A stretch of DNA of 64,000 nt from an uncultured Clostridia bacterium (lineage in GTDB: Bacteria > Bacillota > Clostridia > TANB77 > CAG-508). Shown piece by piece: positions 21,431-51,677 of the stretch. A program made the position numbers and the translations under genes. How positions within the stretch are numbered: position 1 is the stretch's first letter; every line of letters begins with the position of its first letter. The notes below the pieces were generated by a model. The model did not search any database. It was given only the letters and a program-made list of their open reading frames with translations, and was not told where the DNA came from. The stretch covers positions 11,256 to 75,255 of the forward strand of contig CALXBW010000004.1 of NCBI GenBank assembly GCA_944386645.1, in the 5' to 3' direction.

Positions 21431-21581
21431 AGAAAAACCTAATGTATTTTTTATTTGTAACTCCCAGCATCGCACAGTCTGTAAAATATAATGTTAAAGG
21501 AAGTTATAATTATTTATAACAGACTGTTGGCTCGCTGGTCCCCACGAATTGTTACTTCATAAAAAGTACATTAGGTTTTTC
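21431..21581. repeat. Dispersed palindromic element, copy A (151 bp, with a ~35 nt insertion in its central loop)
   Basis: gaaaaacctaATGTAttttttatttGTAACtcccagcatcgcACAGTCTGT...ACAGACTGTtggctcgctggtccccacgaattGTTACttcataaaaagTACATtaggtttttc. Shares the core with copies at 29381, 46196 and 51527. Confidence 0.85.
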
Positions 21582-21601
21582 TGTAAGCATATAAATCTGT
21601 T

Positions 21602-23995
21602 TTATTCAAAAATCTTACTTTTTTCTGCATAGCTTTTAAGTTTTTCATATACAAGATAATTAATGCTTCCTGCAGGGAATGTTCCATCTTTATTTTTTTT
21701 GCCAGCTGGAACACCAGTTAATAATTCTATACCTTCATCTATAGTATTAATTGCATAGATATGGAAGTCACCATTTTTAACAGATTCTATTATTTCATCT
21801 GATAAATGAAGGTTTCTAACATTTTGTATTGGTATTATTACACCATGTTTTTTATTGAAACCACGCATTTTGCATATTTGGTAAAATCCTTCTATTTTCT
21901 CATTTACTCCGCCAATTGGTTGTATTTTACCTTTTTGATTAACAGAACCTGTAACAGCAAGTGATTGATTAATTGGAATGCCTGATAAACTAGATAATAG
22001 GGCATAGGCTTCTGTACTAGAAGCACTGTCTCCATCTACACCATTATATAATTGTTCAAAGCAAAGACTAGCTGTTAGTGAAAGAGGGAAGTCTTGAGCA
22101 AATTTTTCTCCTAAATATCCTGTAAGTATTAATACACCTTTTGAATGTGAAGGACCAGATATTTCAATTTCTCTTTCTATATTTGTTATGCCTGATTTTC
22201 CAAGATAAGTGTTAGCTGTTATTTTAGATGGTTTTCCGAATGAATAATCTCCTATAGTAATAATAGTTAATCCGTTAATTTGTCCAACCTCATAACCATC
22301 TGTTGATATTAATAAAGTATTCTCTTTAATCATTTCTAAATATCTTGAATCATATTTCTTTATTCTTTCAACTCTTTGATCTAAAGCTTTTTGTATAAAC
22401 TCTTTTGTTATTATTTTCTTTTTAGCCATTTTAGCCCATGTAGAAGATTCTGCAACAATCTGACTAATTTCATTAAATTTAGTAGATATTTTATCTTTAT
22501 CATCTGCAAGTCTTGAAGCAAATTCAACTATTTTAGCCATAGCTTCTTTATCTAAGTCTAAAATTTCAGAATTCTTACAGTAATTACCTATAAATTGTGA
22601 TAGCTTTTGAATATTTTCATCTGTTTTTGGAGCATCTTCTTCAAATTCTACTTTAACTTTAAATAATTTACTAAAGTCTTCATCTAAAGAAAGAAGAGTA
22701 TAATACATATTTGCATCTCCAATTAATATAACTTTAACATTTAATGGTATAGGTTCAGGTTTTAGAGAAACTAATACCATTGAAGATCTTTGATCAATAG
22801 AGTTTTCTATATTTAATAATTTAACGCTCAATGATTTTTTTAATGCTTCATAACAACCAGGATTTGCAATCAAATCTTTAGCTTGGAATATAATATATCC
22901 ACCATTTGCTTTATGAAGCAAGCCAGGCTTTAACATGGTATAATCAGTTTTTAATGCACCAAATTGATTTTCATATTCTAATTTTCCGAATATATTATTA
23001 TAAGAATAGTTTGTATCCATTATTACAGGTGCACCTTCTAAGCCACTATTATCTATGAATAAATTTACTTTATAATTATTCCATGGTGCTTTATTATCAG
23101 TTTTTTGCATATTCATATTTCTAACATTTTTTTCTGCAATTTCATCTTGAGTAAAATATGAAATGTTTTTTAATATATCTTTTTTTATATTTTCAAGAAA
23201 TTTATTTATTTTTTTGTTCCTTTTGAAAATTGTTTTAACAGTATTTATATGAAGATTTATAGTAAGTAAAGCTATATTAGATTGCCATTCATCTATTTTT
23301 TTATCGGCTTCTTTTTCAATAGCTTTAATTTCGTTTATAGCTTCATATATTTGTTGTTGTACGATATTAGATTTTTCTTCAAATTCTTGTCTTACAGCTT
23401 CATCTAGATTATTAAATTCTTCTTCTTCTATTGTTTTACCATTAAGAACTGGCATCATGTATATACCATTTTGAGCAGTTTTAACCTGGAAACCATGTTT
23501 TATAGATTTTTCATTTAATTTGGTTAATAACAAATCTCTCTTTTCTTCAAATTCTTGTCTTATTAATTGTTTTTCTTTTTCAAAATCTTCATTGTCAAAA
23601 GTTCTTTTTATATCTAGTCTTACATCTTTTATAAAATCATCCATTGTTTTCTTAAATAATTTACCTTGTCCAGCTGGGAAAGAGATAGCAATTGGTTCAT
23701 TAGGGTCATCAAAATTATATATATAACACCAATCATTAGGAATTTTTTTCTTTTTAGAAACTGTTTCTAAATAATTTTTTGTATACATTGTTTTTCCAAC
23801 ACCAGTTGGTCCCTCAACAAATATGTTATATCCTTTTACTTCTACTTGTACACCAAATTGTAATGCATTTATTCCTCTATCTTGTCCATATATAGTATTG
23901 TATTCTTTTATGTCTGCTGTTGTATTAAATTTAAAGATATTGGGATCGCATACATCTTTTAATTGTTTGTAATTTAATTCTAGTGAATTTTTCAT
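21602..23995 (-). CDS. Lon-like ATP-dependent protease (AAA+ ATPase plus S16 peptidase domain, COG1067 type)
   Basis: Walker A GPTGVGKT. C-terminal Lon proteolytic domain with GPSHSKGV...DGDSASS...catalytic Ser/Lys region (SGIPINQSLAVTGSVNQKGKIQPIGGVNEKIEG). Confidence 0.75.
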   Translation of the reverse strand: MKNSLELNYKQLKDVCDPNIFKFNTTADIKEYNTIYGQDRGINALQFGVQVEVKGYNIFVEGPTGVGKTMYTKNYLETVSKKKKIPNDWCYIYNFDDPNEPIAISFPAGQGKLFKKTMDDFIKDVRLDIKRTFDNEDFEKEKQLIRQEFEEKRDLLLTKLNEKSIKHGFQVKTAQNGIYMMPVLNGKTIEEEEFNNLDEAVRQEFEEKSNIVQQQIYEAINEIKAIEKEADKKIDEWQSNIALLTINLHINTVKTIFKRNKKINKFLENIKKDILKNISYFTQDEIAEKNVRNMNMQKTDNKAPWNNYKVNLFIDNSGLEGAPVIMDTNYSYNNIFGKLEYENQFGALKTDYTMLKPGLLHKANGGYIIFQAKDLIANPGCYEALKKSLSVKLLNIENSIDQRSSMVLVSLKPEPIPLNVKVILIGDANMYYTLLSLDEDFSKLFKVKVEFEEDAPKTDENIQKLSQFIGNYCKNSEILDLDKEAMAKIVEFASRLADDKDKISTKFNEISQIVAESSTWAKMAKKKIITKEFIQKALDQRVERIKKYDSRYLEMIKENTLLISTDGYEVGQINGLTIITIGDYSFGKPSKITANTYLGKSGITNIEREIEISGPSHSKGVLILTGYLGEKFAQDFPLSLTASLCFEQLYNGVDGDSASSTEAYALLSSLSGIPINQSLAVTGSVNQKGKIQPIGGVNEKIEGFYQICKMRGFNKKHGVIIPIQNVRNLHLSDEIIESVKNGDFHIYAINTIDEGIELLTGVPAGKKNKDGTFPAGSINYLVYEKLKSYAEKSKIFE

Positions 23996-24015
23996 TAGTT
24001 TTCCTCCTTAAAATT

Positions 24016-24534
24016 TTATTTATTGTTAAGGTCTAGAGTCATAATAATAGCATTCTCGTCTAAACCATAATAATTTTTTCTTAATCCTACTTTTTTAAAA
24101 CCAGATTTTAAGTATAAATTAATGGCTGGTAAATTTTTGTCATTTACTTCTAAAGTTATAGATTTCATATTTTTGATATTTCTTCCTATTTTAATAAGAT
24201 GTTCCAATATTACATTTCCTATACCTAATTTTCTGAAATTTTTTTTAACTACTATGTTAGTAATATGAACATCATCAACTGCTTTCCAAATACCACCAAA
24301 GCCAACAATATTGTCTTCTAGTTTGGCAATAATATAGTAAGAATTTTCGTTTTTTAGTTCTTCTTTAAAAACATTATAGTTCCAAAAATCGTCAAATTCA
24401 TCTTGTAGTACAGATTTTATTGAGTCTAAATCATCAATAGACATCTTATCTATAATAATATTATTTTTCATTTTTTTCAAGCATCCTCTCAGCTTGAGAT
24501 TTTCTAAGATATATAGGCAATAATTCATCTGCAT
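24016..24534 (-). CDS. rimI: Ribosomal-protein-alanine N-acetyltransferase RimI (GNAT)
   Basis: GNAT acetyl-CoA motif RKLGIGNVIL. Operon with tsaB/tsaE and overlapping the tsaB stop. Confidence 0.75.
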   Translation of the reverse strand: MQMNYCLYILENLKLRGCLKKMKNNIIIDKMSIDDLDSIKSVLQDEFDDFWNYNVFKEELKNENSYYIIAKLEDNIVGFGGIWKAVDDVHITNIVVKKNFRKLGIGNVILEHLIKIGRNIKNMKSITLEVNDKNLPAINLYLKSGFKKVGLRKNYYGLDENAIIMTLDLNNK

Positions 24535-25147
24535 TGCAATATTCTTTTTTTTCTATTTTTTTCCTAGATGCTACTAATACTTTAGAAGATAGCAAATCAT
24601 TTTGCTCATGAAAAATAGCTTTAGACGACAATTTTTCTATAATCTTTTCTTTATTTACTATAGCACCATTTCCAACAAAAGTTATTTTATTATCTAAATT
24701 AGATAAATAGTTTAAAGCCTCATCAATATGTTCTGCTTTTAAATCTTGTATTGGTAAATGATTTTTATCAAATGTACAATAATATATGTTTTCATTTCTT
24801 GCATCTATCATACTACAAATTAATCCATCAGAAATATTTACATTATATGAAAGTGCTTGTAAAGAAGAGATAGGGGCAATAGGTATATTATGTACTTCTG
24901 AAATAGCTTTTATTGTAGCTATTCCTATTCTAATTCCAGTAAAAGAACCTGGTCCAACATCACAAGCTAAATAACTGATATCTTTTAAGGAATAATTTGT
25001 AGTTTTTAATAATTTATCTATTAATGGCATTAAATTTTCAGAATGTGTTTTAGCATCATTAATACTTAATTCTTTAATAATAGTATTTTCATTTCCAAGA
25101 CTCACTGAACATATATTAGTTGATGTACTTATACTAAGAATTACCAT
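24461..25147 (-). CDS. tsaB: tRNA threonylcarbamoyladenosine biosynthesis protein TsaB (YeaZ)
   Basis: MVILSISTST...ICSVSL N-terminus typical of the inactive Kae1/TsaD paralog. Confidence 0.8.
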   Translation of the reverse strand: MVILSISTSTNICSVSLGNENTIIKELSINDAKTHSENLMPLIDKLLKTTNYSLKDISYLACDVGPGSFTGIRIGIATIKAISEVHNIPIAPISSLQALSYNVNISDGLICSMIDARNENIYYCTFDKNHLPIQDLKAEHIDEALNYLSNLDNKITFVGNGAIVNKEKIIEKLSSKAIFHEQNDLLSSKVLVASRKKIEKKEYCNADELLPIYLRKSQAERMLEKNEK

Positions 25148-25607
25148 TTAAAACTACCTCCATTATATTTTTGAATCTATCACTATTTGCATAAATGTTT
25201 AAAATTCTCTTATCTAGGTTATTAGGATCTCTTTCAAAAGTTATTTTTAAAAAATTTTTAGGTAAAATACTTTCTATTAATTCACCCCATTCAATAATGC
25301 ATATACCATTATCAAAATATTCGTCTCCACCTAATGCGTAAAACTCGTCTATATCAGCTAATCTATATACATCAAAATGATAGATATTTGTATTATTAGG
25401 TGCATTATATTCATTTACAATAGTAAATGTTGGGCTTGAAATTTCTGTATCAAGTGAAAAAAATTTAAGTATTCCTTGAGTGAATTTTGTTTTTCCAGAA
25501 CCTAAATCACCACTTAATATTATAATATCACCATTTTGTAAATAACTTGCTAATTTACAAGCAAAATTAATTGTATCATTTTCATTTTGTGAAACATATT
25601 TAAACAT
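25134..25607 (-). CDS. tsaE: tRNA t6A ATPase TsaE (YjeE)
   Basis: Walker A GDLGSGKTKFTQGI. ~155 aa. Confidence 0.85.
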   Translation of the reverse strand: MFKYVSQNENDTINFACKLASYLQNGDIIILSGDLGSGKTKFTQGILKFFSLDTEISSPTFTIVNEYNAPNNTNIYHFDVYRLADIDEFYALGGDEYFDNGICIIEWGELIESILPKNFLKITFERDPNNLDKRILNIYANSDRFKNIMEVVLNGNS

Positions 25608-25756
25608 ATAAAAACCTCACAGTAATTATTTAATATTATTGATAAAATTCAAAGTTAATTTTATATTAGTACTAATTATTTGTAAATATGTTTTGATAAA
25701 AAATTAGAGTAATTTCAAAAATAAAGTATTTATATATTTTAGTAAAAATTTTGTAG

Positions 25757-25775
25757 GGGAGAACAGTGTTCTCCC
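25757..25775. promoter_or_regulatory. Perfect GC-rich palindrome GGGAGAAC-agt-GTTCTCCC in the divergent intergenic region
   Basis: Read directly. The 8 bp arms stand out in 25% GC DNA, and no T-run follows on either strand, so this is a candidate operator rather than a terminator. Confidence 0.3.
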
Positions 25776-25935
25776 GTTCTGCAAAGAGATTGCTTAAAAA
25801 ACATAAAATCTAAACCTAATTAAATATAAGTACAGCTTATATTTATAATAAGTATAAATAATTTGATATTTACATAAAAATAAAGTATAATATATTTAGT
25901 TACAGAATTATGTAAAATTTAAAGGAGTGTAAAAA

Positions 25936-26415
25936 ATGATTAAAGTGACAAAATACAATGTGACAGAAATTATCAGAGAAAGGATGGCTAAGGTTACAAT
26001 TCTCAAACACAGTGAAGCAGATAGTTATGATTCTGATTTAATTGTAGATGGAAATCCCGAAAGTAAAATTGATAAAAACTTAATTTTCGTTGACGTCTCA
26101 GATGATGAGACATGCCTAGTTGCTCGAAAAATTTGGGAATATAATTCAAAAATAAAATTAAAATCTCTATCATTGCCAATAAGTGACATGTGTCGAGAAA
26201 GTACTTATTATCCACTCTCTGTAGATGACTATCTTGAGGGCTATACTACAGTTGAAAGCCTGAGAAATGAAATAAGGAGAAGGATTAATTGTGTAATAAA
26301 AATCTTGAACTTTATGTCGAAAAACAATATATATGCGATGATATACGAAGTATTCGTATATATAAAGGCAGTGGTCGAAAACTATGATAATTTATTAAAG
26401 ATTAAATTAATTTAA
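25936..26415 (+). CDS. Hypothetical protein (159 aa)
   Basis: ORF with RBS aaggagtg. No recognisable motif. A terminator follows. Confidence 0.45.
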   Translation: MIKVTKYNVTEIIRERMAKVTILKHSEADSYDSDLIVDGNPESKIDKNLIFVDVSDDETCLVARKIWEYNSKIKLKSLSLPISDMCRESTYYPLSVDDYLEGYTTVESLRNEIRRRINCVIKILNFMSKNNIYAMIYEVFVYIKAVVENYDNLLKIKLI

Positions 26416-26423
26416 GTACACTC

Positions 26424-26461
26424 AAGCCCCTAGCTAGAATTAGCTGGGGGATTTCTTTTTG
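26424..26461 (+). terminator. Rho-independent terminator
   Basis: AGCCCCTAGCTagaatTAGCTGGGGGatttcttttt. Confidence 0.7.
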
Positions 26462-26516
26462 CCTAAAAAATAGTATATAAAATAAACAATTGCAAAAAAT
26501 AAAATTGGTGGTTAAT

Positions 26517-26774
26517 ATGAAAATTTCATGTATTAAATCAAATAAAGATAAAAAAAGTTTTAAATTTGCAGAATTGTTAGGAATAGATGTATATAGTATT
26601 GAAAGATTAGACGATGTAGATAATGTTTTAGATGAACTTGTAAATAACAAATGTAAGACTATTTTCATTTCAAATGAATTAGCAGGCTTTTCACAAAAAA
26701 TTATGAAGGAATACTATAATGATAAAGATGTAAATATTATTATATCTAAAAGTAAAAGAATATATGATGATTAA
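26517..26774 (+). CDS. Small hypothetical protein with weak V-type ATPase subunit F-like features
   Basis: MKISCIKSNKD...ELLGIDVYSIERLDDVDNVLDEL....IFISNELAG resembles the AtpF/NtpG Rossmann-like pattern. The start was chosen at the ATG 8 nt after ggtgg. Confidence 0.3.
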   Translation: MKISCIKSNKDKKSFKFAELLGIDVYSIERLDDVDNVLDELVNNKCKTIFISNELAGFSQKIMKEYYNDKDVNIIISKSKRIYDD

Positions 26775-26806
26775 TATGCATATACTTTAACAAATGGAGG
26801 AGATAT

Positions 26807-27352
26807 ATGGCAGAAAAAAATAATTTATATAATACATTTGTAGAAGATTTTGCTAGAGTAATATGTCAGCAAACTGCAGGGAAAGAGTATTCTAATATAA
26901 TTTTTTTGTGTATAGGAACAGATAGAATAACAGGTGATACATTTGGACCTTTAGTTGGATATAAATTAGATATATTATTTAGAGATACTAATAGAATTAA
27001 TGTAATAGGAAATTTATCAGAACCTGTATGCTGTAATAATATAGATAGTGTTTTAAATAATATAAATGAACAATTTAGAAATCCTTTTATTGTTGCTATA
27101 GATTCAGCTTTATCTATAGTGTCTGATAATATTGGGAGAATAACAGTATCTGAAGGAGGACTATGTATAGGTAGTGGTCTTGATAAAAATAATGTACATA
27201 TTGGTGACATGAATATTAAAGGTATAGTAGGAAGAGATACAAGAAAACCTATACAGAATTTTAGAATATTACAAAATACTTCATTAAATTTGGTCATGAG
27301 ATTGGCAGATACTGTTTCTAAAGGAATATATCGTACAATAAATTTTAAATAA
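26807..27352 (+). CDS. yyaC: Spore protease YyaC family (DUF1256/TIGR02841)
   Basis: IIFLCIGTDRITGDTFGPLVGYKL matches the YyaC/GPR-like core VCIGTDRSTGDxLGPLVG. Confidence 0.75.
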   Translation: MAEKNNLYNTFVEDFARVICQQTAGKEYSNIIFLCIGTDRITGDTFGPLVGYKLDILFRDTNRINVIGNLSEPVCCNNIDSVLNNINEQFRNPFIVAIDSALSIVSDNIGRITVSEGGLCIGSGLDKNNVHIGDMNIKGIVGRDTRKPIQNFRILQNTSLNLVMRLADTVSKGIYRTINFK

Positions 27353-27416
27353 TTGAATAAGATTATATTTTCTGGAAAAGCTTTATATATAATGTAACAT
27401 TTTCCAGGAGGTATTT

Positions 27417-27746
27417 ATGGAAATTAGTAATCTAAGAAATATGGTAATATTAAAAAATTTACCATCTAATATAGTGGAAGAAGCTATTGTTGTATTAAAA
27501 GAGAATCAGAAAATAAAGAAAAAAGAGTATATAGACAATGGTAAGAAGAGTTCAGAAATTCAAAAAGATGATAGAGAGTATATAGTTAATGAGGCTAGAT
27601 TAGTTATATCTGATTGTATAAATAATTTAGAAAAAAAGAATAAAAAGCCAGATAATCAAATTCAAAAAAAGTATAAAAGAATCCAATATATAAATTATGC
27701 ATTGATTGGTGTATGTTTTTTACAATTTATAATTTGGCTTATATAG
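27417..27746 (+). CDS. Hypothetical protein with a C-terminal TM segment (109 aa)
   Basis: ORF with RBS ccaggaggt. Lys-rich with a hydrophobic C-terminus. Confidence 0.4.
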   Translation: MEISNLRNMVILKNLPSNIVEEAIVVLKENQKIKKKEYIDNGKKSSEIQKDDREYIVNEARLVISDCINNLEKKNKKPDNQIQKKYKRIQYINYALIGVCFLQFIIWLI

Positions 27747-27825
27747 ATATTAAAAAAATGTAAATAATAAATTTTATATTTTATTATTTACATTTTTTTT
27801 GAAAATTAAGATATTAAATTAAATA

Positions 27826-29250
27826 CTAAGCTGCTGTTGTCGTTGGTGTTGTGACATTTTTGGTATTTCTTGTTTTGTAAAATGCAAAGATTGCTACTAG
27901 AACTGCAACAACTGATATACAAGCTGATGCTATAAATGAAACATTTATACCATGTATTAAAGCAAATTGTGCTCCTTGATCTGCAACTGCACTTGTTGCA
28001 CTAGATTGTATAGTAACAAATATTGCAGTACCTATAGAACCTGCAACTTGCCTTAAAGTATTGTTTGAGGCTGTTGCATCTGGAATTGATTTGTTTGCTA
28101 CAGAGTTTAATCCCCAAGTTGTAATTGGCATTAAAGCCATAGAAACTCCAAACATACGTATTGCATAAATTATGCAAATATATACAATTGATGTATCTGG
28201 TCCTAGTTGCATTAATGCAAATGTTGATAATGCCATTATTGATAATCCTGTAATTACTAATTTTTGTGGTCCATATTTATCAAATAATCTTCCTGTTATA
28301 GGACTCATAACACCCATTATGATTGCACCTGGTAATAATAATAATCCAGATTCAATTGCAGAAAATCCTCTTCCTGTTTGCATATATATTGGTAATAACA
28401 TTTCTGTTGCAATCATAGATGAAAATACAATCATAGATACTAAGCATGAATATACAAATACTTTGTTTTTAAATACTCTAAGATTTAATAAAGGTTTTTC
28501 TAATTTTAATTGTCTTATTACAAATAGAACTAGAATGATAGCACCAATTAATATACTACCTATTATTAACATATTAGCCCATCCTGTAGAACCAGCTTCG
28601 CTGAATCCATACAATAATAATGTAAATCCTAAAGTTGATAATATTACAGAAGGAATATCTAATTTATGTTCTTCTTTTTCGCCAACATTTATTAAGCTGA
28701 AATATGCAAATATGATATCTATTATTGCAATAGGTATTATTAAATAGAATAATGCATGCCAACTAAAAGCATCTGTTATAACTCCTGAAAGAGTAGGCCC
28801 AATAGCTGGAGCAAATGCAATTATTATACCAACAGTTCCCATTGCACTACCTCTATTTTCTTTAGGGAAAATGTCTATTAATGTGTTCATTGTAAGTGGC
28901 ATTAATATACCTGCACCTGCAGCTTGGAACACTCTAGCTATAAGTAAAAATGTAAAATTAGGTGAAATAGCTGCAATTATTGTACCAACTGTAAATATTG
29001 ACATAGATGCAATATACAATTGTCTAGTTGTAAATCTGTTAATTAGATATGCAGAAATAGGTATCATGATAGCATTTGTTAGCATAAAGATAGTAGTTAA
29101 CCATTGAGCTACATTTGTCTCGATATTAAAATCTTCCATTATTTTAGGGACTGCTGCTGATAGTAAAGTTTGATTTAAAATTGCAACAAAAGTACCTACT
29201 AACATAACAGAAATAAGCATAATTTTTTTCTTATCTTTTACTCCTCCCAT
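27826..29250 (-). CDS. MFS transporter, DHA2 (EmrB/QacA-like) 14-TM drug:H+ antiporter family
   Basis: 474 aa and ~14 hydrophobic segments. MFS motif-A-like GRLFDKYGPQK. Confidence 0.75.
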   Translation of the reverse strand: MGGVKDKKKIMLISVMLVGTFVAILNQTLLSAAVPKIMEDFNIETNVAQWLTTIFMLTNAIMIPISAYLINRFTTRQLYIASMSIFTVGTIIAAISPNFTFLLIARVFQAAGAGILMPLTMNTLIDIFPKENRGSAMGTVGIIIAFAPAIGPTLSGVITDAFSWHALFYLIIPIAIIDIIFAYFSLINVGEKEEHKLDIPSVILSTLGFTLLLYGFSEAGSTGWANMLIIGSILIGAIILVLFVIRQLKLEKPLLNLRVFKNKVFVYSCLVSMIVFSSMIATEMLLPIYMQTGRGFSAIESGLLLLPGAIIMGVMSPITGRLFDKYGPQKLVITGLSIMALSTFALMQLGPDTSIVYICIIYAIRMFGVSMALMPITTWGLNSVANKSIPDATASNNTLRQVAGSIGTAIFVTIQSSATSAVADQGAQFALIHGINVSFIASACISVVAVLVAIFAFYKTRNTKNVTTPTTTAA

Positions 29251-29380
29251 TATAAAATCCTCCTCTCAAAAAAACATTTTTATTTATTAGCAACCTAACT
29301 ATTATACAATACCATTTTTTAATTGTCAATATAATTAGACACCTAAATAATAATTTTTTATTTTATATATTTAATTAATC

Positions 29381-29527
29381 AAAAATTTAATGTATTTTTT
29401 ATTTGTAACTCCCAGCGTCGCACAGTCTGTAAAATAAAAGAGAAAGTAATAAAAAATTATCTAAACAGACTGTAAGCTTGCTGGTCCCCACGAATTGTTA
29501 CTTCATAAAAAGTACATTAAATTTTTT
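29381..29527. repeat. Dispersed palindromic element, copy B
   Basis: aaaaatttaATGTAttttttatttGTAACtcccagcgtcgcACAGTCTGT...ACAGACTGTaagcttgctggtccccacgaattGTTACttcataaaaagTACATtaaattttttt. Lies in the divergent region between the MFS gene and the M23 peptidase gene. Confidence 0.85.
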
Positions 29528-29625
29528 TAAATATATACAATTAGAAATTGAAATACATGTATCATAAAAAATTTTTTATAACATATATTAGCAATATAGA
29601 TTACGAAGGAAGAGGTGTTATTATT

Positions 29626-30492
29626 ATGGTAGATAAAGCAGCAAATTATGAAGAAAGAATCAGAAGGGCAGAAGAAATATATAATAGAAGGCGAAACAAT
29701 ATAAGAACAAATGATTATGCAACTTTAAATATATCAGGGAAAAAGGATATTAAATTATTTAAGAGAATGTTTATACAAATTATAATTTGTTTAGCAATTT
29801 ATTTTGGAGTTTATATTATACAAAATAATAATTATATATTTTCAGAGAGCTTTATAAGTAAAACAAAAGAGATATTATCATATGATATTAATGTTAGTAA
29901 TTTAACAGAGGGGGTATTACAGTACATAAATAATATAAAAGATGTGCAATCAATGATTCCAGAGCAGTACAGAGAAAAAGATGAAATAAAAATTGATAGT
30001 ACATTAAATAACCAAGCTTTAATGTTAATTGAAGAACCACTTTATACTAATGAAGCAAGTAGTTTAAGCCAAGTTGAAGAAGATGCAAAATTTATAAAGG
30101 AAAACTATTCTCTTATAAAACCTGTAGAAGGAGTTGTAAGTTCAGGTTTTGGTTCTAGAAATCCTACAACACCAACTGTTCCTAAATATCATACAGGTAT
30201 AGATATTGCAAATGTTATTGGAACAAAAATAATTGCTGCTATGGAGGGAGAAGTGACTCAAGTATCATCAGTAGGAGCATATGGAAATCATTTAAGAATA
30301 AAAAATGGAGAAATTGTTACTTTGTATGCACATTGTAGCAAGATATATGTTAAAGAGGGGGATAAAATAAGTCAGGGACAAGAAATAGCTGAAGTGGGGG
30401 ATACAGGAAATGTAACAGGTCCACATTTACATTTCGAAATAAGAAGAAATAATGAATTTGTTGATCCAGCTTATGTAATTGATTTTGAATAA
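29626..30492 (+). CDS. Membrane-anchored M23 (LytM) peptidase, SpoIVFA/SpoIIQ-like
   Basis: N-terminal TM. C-terminal M23 domain with HTGIDIA...GNHLRI...GPHLHFEI (intact HxxxD and HxH zinc ligands). Start reassigned to the ATG at 29626, preceded by ggaagaggtg. Confidence 0.7.
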   Translation: MVDKAANYEERIRRAEEIYNRRRNNIRTNDYATLNISGKKDIKLFKRMFIQIIICLAIYFGVYIIQNNNYIFSESFISKTKEILSYDINVSNLTEGVLQYINNIKDVQSMIPEQYREKDEIKIDSTLNNQALMLIEEPLYTNEASSLSQVEEDAKFIKENYSLIKPVEGVVSSGFGSRNPTTPTVPKYHTGIDIANVIGTKIIAAMEGEVTQVSSVGAYGNHLRIKNGEIVTLYAHCSKIYVKEGDKISQGQEIAEVGDTGNVTGPHLHFEIRRNNEFVDPAYVIDFE

Positions 30493-30498
30493 GATAGG

Positions 30499-31158
30499 AT
30501 GGAGACCAATATGCAAATAAAAGTGAATTTACAAATATTTATATTTATAATAATATTTTTATTAACAAATCAAATATTATTATATGCTATATTAATGCTA
30601 TTTGCATTTATACATGAAATTGGACATTTATTAGCAGGACTTATACTAAAGTTAAAGCCAAATCTTATAAGAATAACACCATTTGGTTTGTCAATTACAT
30701 TTGAAGGATATGGAGAAAAAGTACATAATAATATTAATAAAAAAAGATTACTTATTGCTTTAGCTGGGCCATTAACAAATATAATATTAGTAATTATATT
30801 TATGTTGATACCAGATTGGAATTTTATTGTAAGTAAAGAAATTTTAGTATATTCTAATTTGCTTATTGCTATGTTTAATTTAATGCCTATATATCCATTA
30901 GATGGAGGAAGAATATTAGAAAGTATTTTAAAATATAAAATGAATAATATAAAATCAGTTGAGATTACAAACAAAGTATCAAATTTGTTGGCAATTATAC
31001 TTACTATATTAGCTAGTATATTTGTATTTTATATTAAAAATATAGCTGTATTTTTTGTGATTTTATACTTATGGTATTTAATTGTTAAAGAGAATGAGAG
31101 GTTTAGATTACTGAAAAAAGCATATAATGTAATAGAAAATAAATATAATATGTGTTGA
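30499..31158 (+). CDS. M50 site-2 metalloprotease, SpoIVFB-like, without a CBS domain
   Basis: HEIGH zinc motif inside a TM helix, PFGL and NLMPIYPLDGGRIL (LDG motif). 6-TM topology. Only 219 aa. The true start may be the ATG at 30511. Confidence 0.7.
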   Translation: METNMQIKVNLQIFIFIIIFLLTNQILLYAILMLFAFIHEIGHLLAGLILKLKPNLIRITPFGLSITFEGYGEKVHNNINKKRLLIALAGPLTNIILVIIFMLIPDWNFIVSKEILVYSNLLIAMFNLMPIYPLDGGRILESILKYKMNNIKSVEITNKVSNLLAIILTILASIFVFYIKNIAVFFVILYLWYLIVKENERFRLLKKAYNVIENKYNMC

Positions 31159-31211
31159 AAATTAATTAAATTAATAGTAAACTAAAGAAAATAGTTGGAG
31201 GGTGATTACAT

Positions 31212-31613
31212 ATGAAAAAGAATAAGAAATTATTAATTGGACTTATAATAGCTGTAGTTGTAGTAATTGGTGGAATATTAATATATAAAGGAGTAAATAA
31301 TGCACGTTTAGATAGTTTTTATAATGATTTAAAAACTTTAGGAGATAAAGTTTCATATTATTATGATGAATATGGGGGAATTCCTGTAAAAGAAGAGTAT
31401 ACTGGTTCAGAAAATTTTAAAGCTCAAAAGAATGAAAGTGATAGTAATACTTACTATATTATAGATACTAATTCGTTAGAAGATTTAAATTTAAAAAATG
31501 AGGTTACAGGTGAGGGAGAAGATGTATATATCATAAATGATATTTCTCATACTATTTATTATGCAAAAGGGATAAGTGTTGAGGGAAAGATGTATTATAC
31601 TTTACCTAAATAA
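31212..31613 (+). CDS. Hypothetical membrane-anchored protein (133 aa)
   Basis: N-terminal TM (LLIGLIIAVVVVIGGILIY). No known domain. Confidence 0.45.
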   Translation: MKKNKKLLIGLIIAVVVVIGGILIYKGVNNARLDSFYNDLKTLGDKVSYYYDEYGGIPVKEEYTGSENFKAQKNESDSNTYYIIDTNSLEDLNLKNEVTGEGEDVYIINDISHTIYYAKGISVEGKMYYTLPK

Positions 31614-31703
31614 TATTTTACAGTTTAAATTAATCACATAATAATTGACTATTTATCAAAAATATGATATATTAACATAAAATCGTTATTAGGAGTGAGA
31701 AAT

Positions 31704-31934
31704 ATGATCGAGAAAAAATACTGGATGAAACTTGTAGAACGGTTAAAAAGAGACAAAAAAAGGACTCTTGCAGCTTTGGTACTGTTAATGTACCGAAGAG
31801 ATAAAAAAGGTAAAAGGTTTTTGGAAGTACAGGATAAGTATGTTACTGCAATCAGACCATACCGTAAGAGTGAAGGCGTTTTTCTTGATTTTCGGTGTTC
31901 ATATAAAGATGGATATCGAAGAATATTCTGGTAA
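31704..31934 (+). CDS. Small basic hypothetical protein (76 aa)
   Basis: RBS aggagtg, then ATG at 31704. K/R-rich (MIEKKYWMKLVERLKRDKKR...). Local GC is higher than in the flanking DNA. Confidence 0.4.
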   Translation: MIEKKYWMKLVERLKRDKKRTLAALVLLMYRRDKKGKRFLEVQDKYVTAIRPYRKSEGVFLDFRCSYKDGYRRIFW

Positions 31935-31981
31935 AATAGGTTAAATAACCTAAAACATATTATGTAAATTTACAAAAAATA

Positions 31982-32010
31982 TTGACAAATTGTATTTTAC
32001 ATAATATAAT
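31982..32010 (+). promoter_or_regulatory. Sigma-A-type promoter TTGACA-N17-TATAAT
   Basis: Read directly upstream of the ORF at 32043. Confidence 0.45.
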
Positions 32011-32042
32011 AATTAAGTGTTAATTTTTATAGCTTTTGAACA

Positions 32043-32297
32043 ATGGAGGATGACATTATGATGAATAAGTTAGAAAAAGAAAAAATTTTTTCTGAAATGA
32101 AACAAAAAGCGAGAGAAAAAAAGAGGCTGATGATTGAAATAGAGCTTTGCCAAATGCAAAGGTCATTATTAGAAAAAAAAGAAGACTTTTATCTTTTAAG
32201 AATAACTGAATTTCCAGATATTTTGGAAATTGCAAAAGTAGGATTCTTAAAATACGATTATTACGACCGTTACTATACAAAGGTAACATTGGCATAA
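32043..32297 (+). CDS. Hypothetical protein (84 aa)
   Basis: ORF with RBS aatggagga. A perfect bidirectional terminator follows it. Confidence 0.4.
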   Translation: MEDDIMMNKLEKEKIFSEMKQKAREKKRLMIEIELCQMQRSLLEKKEDFYLLRITEFPDILEIAKVGFLKYDYYDRYYTKVTLA

Positions 32298-32299
32298 TA

Positions 32300-32338
32300 A
32301 CAAAAAATATCACTTGCATTGCAAGTGATATTTTTTGT
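32300..32338. terminator. Bidirectional rho-independent terminator (shared by the 84 aa gene and nrdD)
   Basis: aaaaaATATCACTTGCAttGCAAGTGATATttttttg. Confidence 0.8.
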
Positions 32339-32353
32339 TATTATAAAGTATAA

Positions 32354-34699
32354 TTAAAATTTATTAGGAATTCTATCTTTTAATTCTGAAATTTTAGGAC
32401 TACACCATCTATTAGTATTTCCAACCAAATATGAAGTTATTTTTCTTATTCTTTCAAAAGGTATATCACCTTCGGTTCTTCCACAGCCAGGACAAATTTT
32501 ATCTATATTGCCAACATAACCACATACTGGATCTCTGTCTATACCATGATTTATGGAACCATAACCAATATTAGCTTCTTTCATTATTCTTATTAATTTT
32601 TCAAAAGATTCTACATTATCTATATTATCTTCATCTAATTCAATATAACTAAAATGACCACCATTTGTGAGTTTATGATATGGAGCTTCTAATTTTATCT
32701 TATCTATAGCAGATATATTATAATATACAGGAACATGAAAAGAATTAGTGTAGTAATCTCTGTCTGTAATTCCAGGTAGTATACCAAAAATAGTTTTATC
32801 TATACTTGTAAATCTTCCAGATAAATTTTCAGCAGGGGTAGCAATTAGGGTAAAATTTAAATTATATTTTTTAGAAAATTCATCTGTTTTATTTCTCATA
32901 AAAGTTATTATTTTAATTCCTAATTCTTGTGCTTCATTACTCTCTCCATGATGTTTACCAATAAGAGCTTTTAGGCATTCTGCAAGTCCAATAAAGCCTA
33001 TACTTAAAGTTCCTTGTTTTAAAACTTTCCTAATTTTATCATCTGATTTAATTTTTTCACTATCAATCCATACAGAATTACCTATTAAGAATGGAAAGTT
33101 ATATGCGTGTTTGTTTGATTGTATTTCAAATCTTTCAATTAGTTGATTTTTTACTAAGTCCATTTTTGAATTTAAATCATTGAAAAATCCATCTATGTCA
33201 GGCGAAGTGTTAGTTATTATACCATGTTTAATACCTAGTCTTGGGAGATTAATACTAGTAAAAGATAAATTTCCTCTACCACTAACTATTTCTTTATCAT
33301 CTGATACAAAATTATCTATTACACGTGTACCACAACCAACATAGGATATTTCTGTATTTATATTATCTTTATCATAGTATTTTTTATTAAAATCTGAATC
33401 AATAAAGCAAAAGTTAGGAAATAATTTTTCAGAAGAAACTTGGCATGCTAGTTTAAATAAATCGTAATTAGGGTCATTTTCATTATAATTTATTCCTTCT
33501 TTTACTTTAAAAATAGAAACAGGGTATATAGCAGGCTCTCCTTTACCCAAACCATTTTGTGTTGCAAGTAAAAAGTTTTTGGTTATTAAACGACCTTCAG
33601 GAGATGTGTCTGTTCCAAAATTAACTGTAGAAAATGGAACTTGTGCACCTGCTCTTGAATGCATTGTATTTAAATTATATATAAAGCTTTCCATAGCTTG
33701 ATATGTTAATTTATTAGTTTTATCTAATGCAGATTTATATGCATATCTAAATAATCTTTCAACTTCTTCAGATTCTCTTGAAAACTTATAAAATATACTA
33801 ATATCAAAATTTATAGAATTTAGTTTTGTTATTTCACGTTCTATACTATTTATAGCAACAAATTTTTCAAAATTGCTAAATGATAGTAAGTCATATAAAA
33901 CATTTCTAAATTGTTTCTTAAATGTTTTTAATACTCCTGGAGCCATGTAAAAATCAAAATAAGGTATACTTTGACCTCCGTGTTGGTCATTTTGATTTAA
34001 CTGTATAATAATAGCTGCAATGGAACTGTATGATTGTATATCTTGAGGCTCTCTAAGAAAACCATAATTAGTATAAAAACCATTATTAAAAAGTTTATTT
34101 AAATCTATCTGACATGTTGTTGTCGTTCCCATAGGCATGTAATCTAAATCATGTATATGAATATCTCCACTGTCATGTGCATCTGCATAATCTTTTTTCA
34201 TAAGGTATGCTTTAGAGAATTCTCTAGAAACTGTACTACCAAATTCATATAGTGTTCCCATAGAACAATTTATATTCATATTTGATTCTACCTTACGTTC
34301 AAAATCATCTGAAGTAGATTTTAGTCCTAAATTTTCAAGTGATTTTAAAAATTTATGTAGTTTTTTCTCATCTATAAATGATTCTCTTGATTGAGCTCTT
34401 GTTAATCTATATTTTGAAAAAGATTCATATACATCTAGATAACCATTATTTATAAGCTCTTGTTCTATAATATCTTGTATTTCTTCAATTTTTATTCTAT
34501 CTTGTTTTAATTTAGAAATTCTATCTATTACACAGTTATATATGGCGTTGCTGTCTTTTGGTGAGTATTTTGGTGGGTTTGTAGTAGAATGTTCTAAATT
34601 TATACTATCAAAGCCTTTTTTTATTGCCATTGCAATTTTTGTACCATCAAATTCAACTTTTTTACCATTTCTTTTTATTACAGACATATTTATATTCAT
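32354..34699 (-). CDS. nrdD: Anaerobic ribonucleoside-triphosphate reductase NrdD (class III RNR)
   Basis: N-terminal ATP-cone (VIKRNGKKVEFDGTKI). C-terminal Zn-ribbon CPGCG and glycyl-radical region RDPVCGYVG. The RBS ggagg precedes the second ATG (MNINMSV), so the start is 34699, not 34711. Confidence 0.85.
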   Translation of the reverse strand: MNINMSVIKRNGKKVEFDGTKIAMAIKKGFDSINLEHSTTNPPKYSPKDSNAIYNCVIDRISKLKQDRIKIEEIQDIIEQELINNGYLDVYESFSKYRLTRAQSRESFIDEKKLHKFLKSLENLGLKSTSDDFERKVESNMNINCSMGTLYEFGSTVSREFSKAYLMKKDYADAHDSGDIHIHDLDYMPMGTTTTCQIDLNKLFNNGFYTNYGFLREPQDIQSYSSIAAIIIQLNQNDQHGGQSIPYFDFYMAPGVLKTFKKQFRNVLYDLLSFSNFEKFVAINSIEREITKLNSINFDISIFYKFSRESEEVERLFRYAYKSALDKTNKLTYQAMESFIYNLNTMHSRAGAQVPFSTVNFGTDTSPEGRLITKNFLLATQNGLGKGEPAIYPVSIFKVKEGINYNENDPNYDLFKLACQVSSEKLFPNFCFIDSDFNKKYYDKDNINTEISYVGCGTRVIDNFVSDDKEIVSGRGNLSFTSINLPRLGIKHGIITNTSPDIDGFFNDLNSKMDLVKNQLIERFEIQSNKHAYNFPFLIGNSVWIDSEKIKSDDKIRKVLKQGTLSIGFIGLAECLKALIGKHHGESNEAQELGIKIITFMRNKTDEFSKKYNLNFTLIATPAENLSGRFTSIDKTIFGILPGITDRDYYTNSFHVPVYYNISAIDKIKLEAPYHKLTNGGHFSYIELDEDNIDNVESFEKLIRIMKEANIGYGSINHGIDRDPVCGYVGNIDKICPGCGRTEGDIPFERIRKITSYLVGNTNRWCSPKISELKDRIPNKF

Positions 34700-34871
34700 A
34701 TCAACCTCCATTTGAGCTGATTTTGCTCTAACAAAAATTTATTAAATAATTTGTTTTTCACACTATAACTTTAATATATATTATTATATAAAAAATGATA
34801 AAGTCAAGAAAATACGTAAAAAGGTATACATAAATAATAAAAATATGGTATAATATCAATGTTTAAAAGGG

Positions 34872-36419: not shown

Positions 36420-36445
36420 GGAGAATAAAATAGATATAATTTTTG

Positions 36446-38076: not shown

Positions 38077-38077
38077 A

Positions 38078-38524: not shown

Positions 38525-38600
38525 AAACCAAAATATGGTATAATATTTAAGTAAAAATTTTTATTAAAAAATTAATTGATTTTGAGGAGGAATCCGAAAG

Positions 38601-38894: not shown

Positions 38895-38898
38895 TAAT

Positions 38899-39543
38899 AT
38901 GGCGACACGTCCATCATGGAGAATAGTAAAAACGGATAACTTTATCAAAATTGTAAAAAATCACTTTGAATTTAAATTTAATCCAGGTTTTTCTGTTACT
39001 CAAAAACGGAAAAATGTAGTTGCTTTACACCAAGCAATTGGTGATAAAGCATTAGAGGTTTCAACTAAATCTGATCTGAAACTCGGAAGAATGTTAAGTG
39101 CATTCAATTTAAGAATCAACGGAATACCACTTGAGTGTGTATTCCAATCTGCTAAGGTTTATCAATATGGAGGACCTTATAAAGACCTCTTAAATGTGTC
39201 TCCAAAAGATGCTAAAAGAGATGAGCGTCACAAGAGTTCAGGAAAATTAATCTACTTCGAATATGAAGGAAAAAGATTTCCTCTTGAACCAAAAACATTC
39301 TTTTATGACTTTATTTATATAAAGGCTGTAAAAGAGTGTATTCCTTTGGAGGAGGTAAAAGATATAGTTCAGTATTCGCATTTTTCGGATATTGAATTCA
39401 ATCCTAAAAAATCAATTAACTGCCAAGCTAAAAGCGTTGCTATAATTAAAGCAATGCTGATGGTATTTGGCGAAGTTCCTCATATCAATGATATTGAGGA
39501 ATTTAAAAAATTTTACAAAGTAATTCAGGCAGAAAATGCTTGA
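38899..39543 (+). CDS. Hypothetical protein D (214 aa)
   Basis: Start reassigned to the ATG at 38899 (RBS gaggagga 10 nt upstream). Contains YQYGGPYKDLL and FYDFIYIKAV. ~35% GC against the ~25% background. A strong terminator follows it. Confidence 0.45.
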   Translation: MATRPSWRIVKTDNFIKIVKNHFEFKFNPGFSVTQKRKNVVALHQAIGDKALEVSTKSDLKLGRMLSAFNLRINGIPLECVFQSAKVYQYGGPYKDLLNVSPKDAKRDERHKSSGKLIYFEYEGKRFPLEPKTFFYDFIYIKAVKECIPLEEVKDIVQYSHFSDIEFNPKKSINCQAKSVAIIKAMLMVFGEVPHINDIEEFKKFYKVIQAENA

Positions 39544-50255: not shown

Positions 50256-50387
50256 ATATGAGGTATTTATTACCTCATATTTTTTAAAGATATATTACCA
50301 TATATTGTAAAATGCAAAAATATATGCTAATATATTAAATGTAATTAAAAATGGTAAAGTTAGTAAATTAAAACGGAGGTAAGGAAT

Positions 50388-51485
50388 TTGATTATTGATA
50401 TGGGCTATTTAAGTAAAGTGTTTAAAAGAATAATTTTATTATTACTTAGTATACTCTTACTTTTTTTAGTTGTTAAATTGTCTATATTCTATATGCCATT
50501 TTTAATAGCTTTTATAATAGCAAGTTTAATAGAACCTATAATAAGGTTTGTAAAAAAACATACAAAACTACAAAGAAAAACATCAGCAATAATAGTATTA
50601 ATAACAGTGTCTACTATCATAATAGGAATAATTGCGTGGGGGATAACTGTTTTAATATCAGAATCGTCGGAATTGTTGCAATCATTAAACATATATACAG
50701 ATAAAATATATAATTTATTTCAATCTTTTATAGGAAATATAAATTTTGAAAGATTTAATATACCATCAGAAGTTACACAATTATTACAAAACTCAACAAG
50801 CGATGTGCTTTCTGTTGTATCAAATGGTTTAAAAGGAATTTTAAATTCGATAATACAAGTAATAACATCATTACCAACAATAGGAATATATGTAGTTGTA
50901 ACATTACTTGCAACATATTTTATATGTGCAGATAGATTATATATATTAGATCAAATAGAACACCATTTTCCTAAAAAATGGGTAAAAAAATTAACACTTC
51001 ATTTAAAAAGACTGTTATCGAGCTTAGGAAATTATTTAAAAGCAGAGGCAATACTTGCAATTATAGCATTTTTTCAGATATTAATAGGTTTATATATACT
51101 TCAGAAAATGGGAATGAATGTACAATATCCTTTACTTGTAGCAATAGGAATTGGTTTTGTTGATGCACTCCCAATATTAGGTTCAGGTACAATTTTGGTA
51201 CCATGGGCATTTATATCAGCTATTAATGGTGATATAAGATTAGCAATAGGATTATTAATAATTTTTGCCATATTATCTGTTGTCAGACAATTCTTAGAAC
51301 CTAAAATAGTTAGCAAAAAAATAGGAATACATCCTATCTTTACATTAATTGCAATGTATACAGGATTTAAAGTAATAGGAATATTGGGTTTATTAATTGG
51401 ACCAATTGCAATGATTATAATAAAAAATTTATATGGAACTTTAATTGATAAAGGTGTTGTAAAAAGTATTTTCGAAAGAAAGTAA
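50388..51485 (+). CDS. ytvI: AI-2E (PerM) family transporter, sporulation membrane protein YtvI-like
   Basis: 365 aa, 8 TM, size and topology match the AI-2E family. TTG start after ggaggtaagg. Confidence 0.6.
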   Translation: MIIDMGYLSKVFKRIILLLLSILLLFLVVKLSIFYMPFLIAFIIASLIEPIIRFVKKHTKLQRKTSAIIVLITVSTIIIGIIAWGITVLISESSELLQSLNIYTDKIYNLFQSFIGNINFERFNIPSEVTQLLQNSTSDVLSVVSNGLKGILNSIIQVITSLPTIGIYVVVTLLATYFICADRLYILDQIEHHFPKKWVKKLTLHLKRLLSSLGNYLKAEAILAIIAFFQILIGLYILQKMGMNVQYPLLVAIGIGFVDALPILGSGTILVPWAFISAINGDIRLAIGLLIIFAILSVVRQFLEPKIVSKKIGIHPIFTLIAMYTGFKVIGILGLLIGPIAMIIIKNLYGTLIDKGVVKSIFERK

Positions 51486-51526
51486 TATCTAGAAAATTAA
51501 TGTTACAGCTTAATAAAAGTAATATA

Positions 51527-51643
51527 AAAAAATTAAATATAACTTTTTATTTGTAACTCCCAGCATCGCACAGTCTGTAAAACAGACTGTAAGCTTGCTG
51601 GTCCCCACGAATTGTTACTTCATAAAAAGTATATTTAATTTTT
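51527..51643. repeat. Dispersed palindromic element, copy D (minimal form; central hairpin loop is only aaa)
   Basis: aaaaaattaaATATAactttttatttGTAACtcccagcatcgcACAGTCTGTaaaACAGACTGTaagcttgctggtccccacgaattGTTACttcataaaaagTATATttaattttttt. Confidence 0.85.
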
Positions 51644-51677
51644 TTAATTATAGGAAATCTCTTTTTTTACCACAACA

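Follow-up and report, generated by a model that had tools for sequence, protein, structure and literature searches.

Small intergenic palindromes that can fold into long hairpins have been described in several bacterial groups, and they are the systems closest to the element reported here, a palindromic repeat present in four copies, A to D, in a 64-kb stretch of DNA from an uncultured Clostridia bacterium (the whole stretch analysed, hereafter the window). Among these systems, REPINs (REP doublets forming hairpins) commonly show compensatory changes across the hairpin, persist vertically over long periods and are inferred to pass through a single-stranded DNA stage, with 101 of one type in SBW25 (PMC3116915). 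Repetitive extragenic palindromic (REP) units are short, G+C-rich and tagged GTAG/CGTC (PMC3733652). The bcr1 repeat of the Bacillus cereus group is intergenic, ~155 bp long and strain-variable in its distribution, with 5-bp direct repeats and compensatory changes that keep its structure (PMC3184786). The Correia (NEMIS), ERIC/IRU, RUP, BOX and SPRITE repeats are intergenic palindromes of 100–170 bp that form long RNA/DNA hairpins (PMC3184786).

The family to which copies A–D belong shares traits with each of these systems. Like the REPINs of Pseudomonas and Enterobacteria, which are mobilized by REP-associated tyrosine transposases (RAYTs), its members are non-coding intergenic palindromes that form one long hairpin and undergo compensatory changes. 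REPINs, however, have conserved 16-mers at their ends and a variable spacer in the middle, whereas our family is conserved centrally and varies at its ends. REPINs also occur in hundreds per genome, whereas the family numbers 1–9 exact-core copies per assembly (a lower bound), and no RAYT was found in 418 kb of related DNA. Inspection of the alignment further revealed that the arms, unlike REP units, are AT-rich, are not self-palindromic and carry no GTAG/CGTC tag. An assignment to REP or REPIN proper was rejected on the lack of G+C-rich tagged units, the central conservation and the low copy number. With bcr1, the family shares an intergenic location in Firmicutes, a similar length and mobile-element traits, including a 5-bp TTAAT at copy D. 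The two have no sequence similarity, bcr1 is cruciform-like with two stem-loops whereas the family forms one long bulged hairpin, and the duplication that is consistent in bcr1 is seen at a single site in the family.

Repeats of the Correia, ERIC, RUP, BOX and SPRITE class are gene-adjacent and can have a terminator, processing-site or promoter role. Copies of the present family are likewise gene-adjacent intergenic hairpin palindromes, as are Correia elements in Neisseria, ERIC/IRU, and RUP, BOX and SPRITE in Streptococcus pneumoniae. These repeats have conserved terminal inverted repeats (and, in Correia, a TA duplication), whereas the ends of the family are its least conserved part and its internal core is invariant; no sequence relationship was detected. 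The consensus boxes of integron attC sites are RYYYAAC and GTTRRRY. The element resembles such sites in its imperfect hairpin with AAC/GTT at the base, in having extrahelical bases on one strand and in its variable terminal structure. Unlike attC sites, which are conserved in structure only, it has a strongly sequence-conserved core and a very asymmetric unpaired region, and it is accompanied by no arrays or integrase.

An earlier note on this DNA could place the element in no named family, and our searches agree. Across the whole window, Rfam 15 gave 0 matches at the gathering threshold; at permissive E-values, copies A, D and one nested copy drew only spurious, far sub-threshold long-hairpin models such as plant microRNA precursors. 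Copy D had no blastn match among PLSDB plasmids or INPHARED phages, exact and gapped pattern scans of IMG/VR viral contigs recovered no family member, and a full-text literature search for the core sequence returned chance primer matches only. To our knowledge, the anatomy also fits neither Y RNA, k-turn or T-loop motifs nor known ribozymes, and these were rejected. The family is unnamed, and its kind, the small mobile palindromic repeat, is already known; it is not a new system. With slightly better than even confidence, we read copies A–D as members of a family of non-coding palindromic DNA repeats, similar to REPINs and to MITEs (miniature inverted-repeat transposable elements), dispersed in the chromosomes of uncultured gut Clostridia of ~26% G+C.

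Anatomy, covariation and spread of the element

Copy A occupies 21431–21581, copy B 29381–29527, copy C 46196–46311 and copy D 51527–51643, with C on the minus strand and A, B and D on the plus strand. A scan with the two core halves, GTAACTCCCAGCATCGCACAGTCTGT and GCTGGTCCCCACGAATTGTTAC, yielded four matches each in the window at ≤3 mismatches, where dinucleotide shuffles predict 0, and a covariance model trained on 33 copies again returned A–D and no fifth copy. The window has a G+C content of 25.7%, and each copy folds on either strand into a single long hairpin of -40 to -52 kcal/mol (z of -7.4 to -9.8 against dinucleotide shuffles). From the outside inwards, the hairpin comprises an outer stem of ~23 bp, a small internal loop, the helix GTAAC/GTTAC, an asymmetric loop in which TC faces TCCCCACGAAT(T), the helix CCAGC/GCTGG, an unequal internal loop and the central hairpin ACAGTCTGT/ACAGACTGT, followed by the terminal loop. 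The central hairpin is free of mismatches in all four copies. The bulge TCCCCACGAAT(T), of 11–12 nt, is one-sided in each of them, and the terminal loop measures 3 nt in the short-loop copies C and D and 35–37 nt in the long-loop copies A and B.

These parts can be followed along copy A, where the outer arms (21431–21454 and 21559–21582) enclose GTAAC (21457–21461) and GTTAC (21551–21555), CCAGC (21464–21468) and GCTGG (21534–21538), and the central hairpin (21474–21482 and 21519–21527) with its loop (21483–21518); the unpaired bulge TCCCCACGAATT spans 21539–21550. The corresponding bulges lie at 29485–29496 in copy B, 46226–46237 in copy C and 51602–51613 in copy D. The outer arms differ from copy to copy (CC/GG, TT/AA, TC/GA and TTAAATATA/TATATTTAA) with pairing preserved in each. 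Arms of 22–24 nt are 91–96% complementary in A, B and D, the left arm of D carrying one bulged A (ATATAAC), and those of C are complementary inside a longer 37-nt match. The palindrome of copy B extends further out (29352–29374 and 29527–29549). Inverted-repeat ends are therefore present, but the arms vary between copies with compensation and are not the conserved part. From the letters alone, the earlier note had read four copies at these positions, a perfect central hairpin in each and a fixed, structured, asymmetric unit; the core-half scan and the covariance model recover the same copies, and the third claim is upheld by the one-sided bulge in 4/4 copies and by stems that covary far beyond chance.

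Outside the window, an exact scan for the right-hand core in one genome per species identified 25 loci in 9 assemblies of uncultured Clostridia or 'Bacilli'. The host assemblies come from animal and mouse guts, and one of them, BRZ_HH__bin29, is of the window's species. Another 12 loci came from metagenomes, scanned with a slightly degenerate pattern; the record names of two of them mention human gut. A covariance-model search, which the earlier note had proposed, brought the family to 37 distinct copies, including 3 overlooked by exact patterns. The repeat measures ~115–160 bp, and copy lengths range across the family from 116 to 246 nt. Terminal loops fall into length classes of 3–4, 9–11 and 31–37 nt, with outliers of ~100 and ~130 nt, and their lengths ignore reading frame. 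In one of the outliers, at L011:4534-4779, the central hairpin is swapped for a different repeat, nested in the copy. The suspicion that the loop tolerates insertions was thus well founded, with lengths from 3 to ~130 nt and another repeat nested in one copy. A truncated copy, L015, retains the right half only and lies beside a glycogen phosphorylase gene.

The outer stem follows AAAAA-NN-[T/A]AAT[G/A]TA in ~10 copies of the window's species, and other genomes carry different outer stems. The arms therefore do covary with pairing kept, as the earlier note held, but they are not locus-specific as it also held, being alike within a genome and unlike between genomes. Copies can also be clustered locally: the window has four in 30 kb (21431–51643), the reference assembly of the species has 9 exact-core copies overall with 3 in the same stretch, L011 carries a pair separated by 1 kb, and L025 three copies within 6 kb.

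In the model-based alignment, 98.2% of the pair cells are paired, compared with 86.7 ± 0.5% after column shuffles and 34–45% with slid partners, and two-sided changes were observed in 22 of the 39 pairs, distributed over all five helices. Watson-Crick pairs account for 1380 of the 1425 pair cells (96.8%), the remainder being 19 G:T, 12 A:C and 14 other mismatches. A G:T cell is a wobble pair on the plus strand only and an A:C cell on the minus strand only, so wobble pairs are rare and neither strand is favoured (19 vs 12). The copies found by the model only retain CCCCGAAT in the bulge, and their 5-bp helix is compensated as GTGAC/GTCAC and GCAAC/GTTGC. The asymmetric core with its unpaired TCCCCNCGAAT bulge is the most conserved part, although the loci were retrieved with a 20–22-mer of the right core and the conservation of that stretch is in part by construction; the terminal loop varies freely.

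Orientation was also assessed. Among copies between tandem genes, 11 are sense and 7 antisense (~11 vs 5 without orthologous duplicates), which is not significant. At one locus in a relative from the human gut, the whole unit and its spacers occur in both orientations (3 vs 2 samples), flipped between 22-bp outer repeats. Given the absence of strand bias and of a significant orientation bias, together with both orientations at one locus, we favour a constraint at the DNA level over a one-strand RNA; it would bear either on symmetry itself or on a DNA hairpin open to both strands. These counts do not indicate selection on an RNA stem, which the earlier note had put forward. The inverted block corresponds to L028:5552-6083 and L033:10245-10776 and lies between convergent genes. 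Its 22-bp outer repeats are AAAAAGAAACTAAATATATAGT and its complement, the arrangement in L028, L031 and L032 is the reverse of that in L033 and L037, and some of the samples are labelled human gut.

Filled and empty sites

Comparison with other strains and lineages revealed sites that lack the element. Copy C lies in the uvrA-cmk spacer between co-directional genes, after the uvrA stop codon and before the resident terminator. The site is filled in the window and in strain L046; the species' reference genome is empty there, and so are 6 strain contigs that come from other samples. The spacer measures 447 nt when filled and 282 nt when empty, a net difference of 165 nt, and the block absent from the empty strains (46147–46320) is made up of 49 unique nt, then copy C and a further ~10 nt. 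The resident uvrA terminator hairpin, AAAAAATCTCG-TTTAA-CGAGATTTTTT (46340–46366, plus strand), is intact in filled and empty strains alike. Insertion into a terminator loop, as the earlier note had proposed, is therefore not what happened at C, where the element stands between the stop codon and an intact terminator. The 49-nt flank (46147–46195) has no second copy in 418 kb of related DNA; it bears a loose likeness to a collapsed element copy (ATTTATGTGTAAC...GAATTTGTTATTGAAAG) and could be a decayed second copy. An open reading frame (ORF) of 108 aa that starts inside copy C (46205–46531), the sole ORF overlapping a copy, has no Pfam match and is most likely spurious.

Copy D, between the convergent AI-2E transporter and DUF1980 genes, is filled in the reference genome and in the 5 further strain contigs compared; all retrieved strains of the species carry it. 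Its site is empty in a sister lineage (L061 and L062, from two samples), whose DUF1980 protein is 91% identical to that of the window and whose convergent genes are separated by an 11-nt spacer, TATCTAGAAGC. There the sequence reads TAA-TATCTAGAA-GC-TTAAT-TTCTAGATA, a 10-bp hairpin with a 7-nt loop and a single TTAAT. Relative to this site, the window carries a 176-nt insertion (51502–51677, plus strand) made up of copy D with ~25 nt of unique sequence on its left and ~34 nt on its right. TTAAT stands as a direct repeat on both sides of the insertion (51497–51501 and 51678–51682, plus strand), the right-hand repeat overlapping the DUF1980 stop codon. An outer inverted repeat encloses the whole. 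The first 10 nt (ATATCTAGAA) of its left arm, ATATCTAGAAAATTAATGTT (51485–51504, plus strand), are the hairpin stem in the empty site, and its right arm, AACATTAATTTCTAGATAT (51674–51692, plus strand), lies partly within the 3' end of the DUF1980 gene. Since a more distant species has a 2-nt spacer at this position, the short state is probably ancestral.

The suggestion of a small non-autonomous insertion is thus supported by the empty-site comparison, with C absent in 7 of the strain contigs compared and D absent in the sister lineage, and at D the insertion does sit in a hairpin loop, that of the pre-existing 10-bp hairpin between convergent genes. The accompanying proposal, that the outermost 14–15 bp are the stem of the targeted terminator, is not supported. 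The outer stem lies inside the 176-nt insert of copy D and is homologous among the copies of one genome; it is therefore part of the inserted DNA and not derived from the target. Nor is it a separate resident repeat, as a search of the window for 'empty' outer stems of the pattern AAAANNTAAT...ATTANNTTTT gave no match. All retrieved strains carry copies A and B, the latter in four further strains, and the orientation of A, B and D is fixed in all strains sampled.

Once inserted, the parts of the element differ in how they change. Between the window and the reference strain, the arms and core of copy A differ at 0 of 115 positions and its loop at 3 of 36, with flanking genes 94–97% identical. 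In a more distant strain, the stems are unchanged, three clustered changes fall in an internal loop and the loop differs at 3 positions. For an orthologous copy in two species (L012 and L024), arms and core are identical at ~107 of 109 positions, compared with 85% in the loop, 91% in the neighbouring gene and ~84% in the other flanks; the figure of ~107/109 is a re-count from the alignment, and a right-arm value of 59/78, which includes a terminal indel, was set aside. By these alignments, arms and asymmetric core are constrained after insertion and the loop is not.

In line with the favoured reading as MITE/REPIN-like DNA repeats, copies A–D have most of the traits of MITEs, being small, non-coding and dispersed, with inverted-repeat ends and presence/absence polymorphism. 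The comparisons show the whole hairpin, including the covarying outer stem, entering intergenic spacers as inserted DNA, mostly behind the 3' ends of genes and in one case, copy D, in the loop of a small resident hairpin. They also show gain or loss of copies between strains and sister lineages. In inserted copies, arms and core are held better than the surrounding sequence while the loop drifts, and both strands keep their Watson-Crick complementarity. We propose that the constraint acts on a DNA hairpin or cruciform, for instance when the DNA is single-stranded in replication or transposition, or else on the symmetry of the palindrome as such. It could be exerted in two ways, and both may apply: a trans-acting, structure-specific enzyme might propagate only hairpin-competent copies, or template switching within the quasi-palindrome might carry a change in one arm over to its partner. 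Mutation of quasi-palindromes by template switching is well established for E. coli, and it would also account for the host's many perfect palindromes. Neither route accounts for the one-sided bulge, which arm-to-arm copying would erase, and we infer that the invariant asymmetric core (GTAAC/GTTAC, CCAGC/GCTGG and the 11–12 nt bulge TCCCCNCGAAT) is the selected determinant. The bulged core is most likely the binding site of a putative mobilizing or host protein.

Several observations weigh against this reading. Orthologous copies conserved across species, together with the low number of copies per assembly, are atypical of a selfish MITE. The gradient of conservation is inside-out, highest mid-element and lowest at the ends. 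Classical MITEs show the opposite, their terminal repeats being the transposase sites. The TTAAT at D is the sole clear direct repeat; 34 other copies show nothing consistent, their AT-rich flanks blurring the boundaries. The insert blocks at C and D exceed the conserved palindrome by 40–60 nt of unique sequence, which leaves room for multi-step growth of the spacer or for loss in the 'empty' lineage. Finally, no autonomous element with the same ends was found in the 418 kb of related DNA, PLSDB, INPHARED or IMG/VR.

Further searches for a mobilizing partner gave similar results. Split copies, with left and right halves around a gene as in an autonomous element, were sought in the related loci and none was found. 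An all-vs-all comparison of the proteins encoded near copies revealed no recurrent transposase or recombinase, the recurring neighbours being M23 peptidase and Mur ligase paralogues, probably by chance. A tblastn search of the 418 kb with an approximate IS200 TnpA query returned nothing significant. A bolder version of the favoured reading would make the family one half of a REPIN/RAYT-like partnership in Firmicutes, in which a single-copy enzyme reads the bulged core on the folded single strand and copies the hairpin into the tips of other hairpins, the host then keeping copies as terminators or insulators. We consider this version decidedly unlikely.

Genomic position and rival explanations

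The position of the copies relative to genes bears most directly on the strongest rival. In 31 scorable copies, the spacer is convergent in 10 cases, tandem in 18 and divergent in 3; 28 of the 31 copies lie 3' of at least one gene, and the distance to the gene is usually 10–60 nt. The window copies, 5–17 kb apart, stand among housekeeping genes (rplS, Lon-like, MFS, M23, uvrA, cmk, AI-2E transporter and DUF1980). The genes around copy A, rplS and that of the Lon-like protease, are convergent, and those around copy B, for the MFS transporter and the M23 peptidase, are divergent; with C co-directional and D convergent, the gene contexts are those that the earlier note had described. Copy B sits between two divergent promoters, that of the MFS gene being a perfect TTGACA-17-TATAAT (29329 to 29301) just outside the copy. 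Copy A directly follows the resident rplS terminator, a perfect 23-bp AT-rich palindrome (21367–21415, plus strand). In related species, rplS has an ordinary terminator, the element is absent after it and the neighbouring genes differ. The L19 protein itself (20850–21368, 172 aa) has its Pfam domain at residues 2–112 and a C-terminal extension of ~60 aa that is common to relatives in the clade.

Such positions would suit a cis-acting RNA hairpin in 3' untranslated regions or intercistronic spacers, acting as a terminator, a block to 3' exonucleases or an RNase III-type site, with the C-rich bulge binding a protein or RNA and mobility serving as a means of spread only. We judge this explanation unlikely, though it has real points in its favour. 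Besides the 28 of 31 copies 3' of a gene, often 10–60 nt past the stop codon, the 23-bp stem of the window copies is followed by a terminal U5-7 whichever way it is read, as in the host's palindromic terminators. Several sense copies stand between the tandem genes of one cluster (L025, three in 6 kb), there is a weak sense trend (11 vs 7), and arms and core are held in place while the loop drifts. However, G:U makes up 1.3% of pairs and shows no wobble strand bias (19 vs 12), and this would be uncommon in an RNA helix of so AT-rich a genome. Nor is there a significant orientation bias, and samples differ in the orientation of the unit at one locus. A strong terminator within a co-transcribed cluster, apparently of fab genes at L025, would moreover be harmful; we take these to be fab genes, tentatively, from their C-terminal sequences.

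Termination in particular does not account for the family as a whole. A scan for promoters and terminators found nothing inside the element, and consensus terminators are absent at A, B and D; nor is there an Rfam family match. In the window's species, runs of A5-7 and T5-7 frame each copy, as they do in the host's long AT-rich palindromic terminators, but the T5-7 after the stem is missing in several other species (e.g. the copies of L025 and L028). Copies in other species lack the T-run, and some of these lie between tandem genes of the apparent fab cluster; termination is therefore not the conserved function of the family. The window copies probably serve also as bidirectional terminator or insulator hairpins, a feature that is not conserved across the family, and an atypical long-hairpin terminator function is possible. 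The canonical rho-independent terminator was rejected, as the consensus scan found none at A, B or D and T5-7 is not family-wide.

The host's own palindromes bring a second rival into view, in which the element is a decaying, functionless palindrome whose covariation and conservation stem solely from recent common ancestry and from neutral correction of one arm against the other, either through template switching or through mismatch repair of the hairpin. Many perfect AT-rich palindromes of 20–25 bp with A/T-run frames occur in intergenic spacers of the window, at 32294–32344, 21367–21415, 17240–17285, 27752–27799, 4277–4376 and 61063–61110. These are presumably the host's bidirectional terminators. 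That they are perfect suggests a mutational process that corrects palindromes in this genome. A general perfecting process of this kind, the Watson-Crick symmetry of the element on both strands and the existence of truncated or disrupted copies (L015; L011:4534-4779) all agree with decay. Correction should nevertheless erase asymmetry, yet no parts are more conserved across species with different stems than the 11–12 nt bulge on one side and the internal loops of unequal size, and orthologous copies remain ~98% identical in arms and core compared with 85% in the loop and 84–91% in the flanks. We therefore regard this explanation as very unlikely.

There is a slimmer chance still that the element is a site for site-specific recombination, either a folded site of the attC type or the central part of an invertible switch, with the bulge giving strand or orientation selectivity. 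An imperfect hairpin with basal AAC...GTT boxes, the one-sided extrahelical bases and the terminal structure of variable length would fit. So would the human-gut relative, in which 2 of 5 samples have the unit and its spacers flipped between the 22-bp outer repeats. Against this, TTGTAAC and GTTACTT agree with the attC consensus at AAC/GTT only, and the unpaired regions of 2 and 11–12 nt are not a near-symmetric spacer. The copies lie 5–17 kb apart among housekeeping genes without cassette arrays, and an identification as an attC site was rejected on these grounds. No integrase or invertase was found by Pfam among 19 flanking and strain-variable ORFs of the window, nor as a recurrent neighbour. 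An invertible switch is further opposed by the lack of a promoter-like site inside the element, the fixed orientation of A, B and D, and the location of the inverted locus between convergent 3' ends with no obvious switch target. Scarcely credible is a free-standing structured RNA gene (a small RNA or self-cleaving ribozyme) multiplied in the genome: the element does show the usual functional-RNA signature of a conserved asymmetric core, covarying helices and a variable peripheral loop, but the copies have no associated promoter, stand in both orientations relative to neighbouring genes without wobble strand bias, carry a perfect 23-bp outer stem that is atypical of ribozymes and riboswitches, and gave not even a weak ribozyme-family match, at E≤10 with copy D or at E≤1 with copy A.

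Neighbouring repeats and what the family means

Other repeats and variable segments were encountered in the same genomes. A second repeat family occurs in the 496-nt spacer after the ORF at 2190–4175 (window 4176–4671), as a tract rich in TTCACT/TTCATT that ends in ATTCATTGC, together with a hairpin GCAAYC-RAAG-RTTGC. The same spacer contains an internal direct repeat (~4181–4290 and 4472–4580) that includes a GTAGGGNCRAACANTGTTCGCCC hairpin. Members of this second family are also present at L011:4534-4779, at L016 (~990 and ~5355), at L020 (~99–170) and at L018 (~2129), and it is a unit of this family that replaces the central hairpin in the L011 copy.

In the mouse-gut genome MGBC143692, the element is nested in a far larger palindrome made of TTGCCA-N17-TGGCAA hairpins, e.g. 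TTGCCAAAAAGGTCCCTCCCCTCTGGCAA, whose arms differ between loci with pairing kept (L013:2790-3060, L014:7100-7380, L021:1-240, L001:700-960, and L009:60-110 and 5740-5780). A solo hairpin of the TTGCCA-N17-TGGCAA type lies directly upstream of a gene's ribosome-binding site. Two segments of the window also vary between strains. A 3.5-kb segment (53420–56916) that encodes radical SAM, DUF402 and PHP-domain proteins and a 119-aa ORF without Pfam match is missing from the reference genome. The segment at 25715–26419, with an ORF (25936–26415) that has no Pfam match, corresponds to ~1.4 kb of different sequence in the reference (L018:1945-3331).

Under the favoured reading, in which A–D belong to a dispersed family of palindromic DNA repeats, the poorly studied AT-rich Clostridia of animal, mouse and human guts gain an unnamed repeat family and a usable covariance model for it. 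Individual copies can serve as strain-level markers, through their insertion, loss or inversion. Strong 'RNA-like' covariation in a DNA palindrome without strand bias is also a caution for the discovery of non-coding RNAs by covariation. If the partnership with an enzyme were true, the layout of a conserved centre and free ends would point to a mode of mobilization unlike that of terminal-repeat MITEs and of REP/RAYT. Should the core bind a dedicated enzyme, REPIN-like persistent mobile DNA would be extended to the Firmicutes; otherwise, the family would be an ordinary small palindromic repeat.

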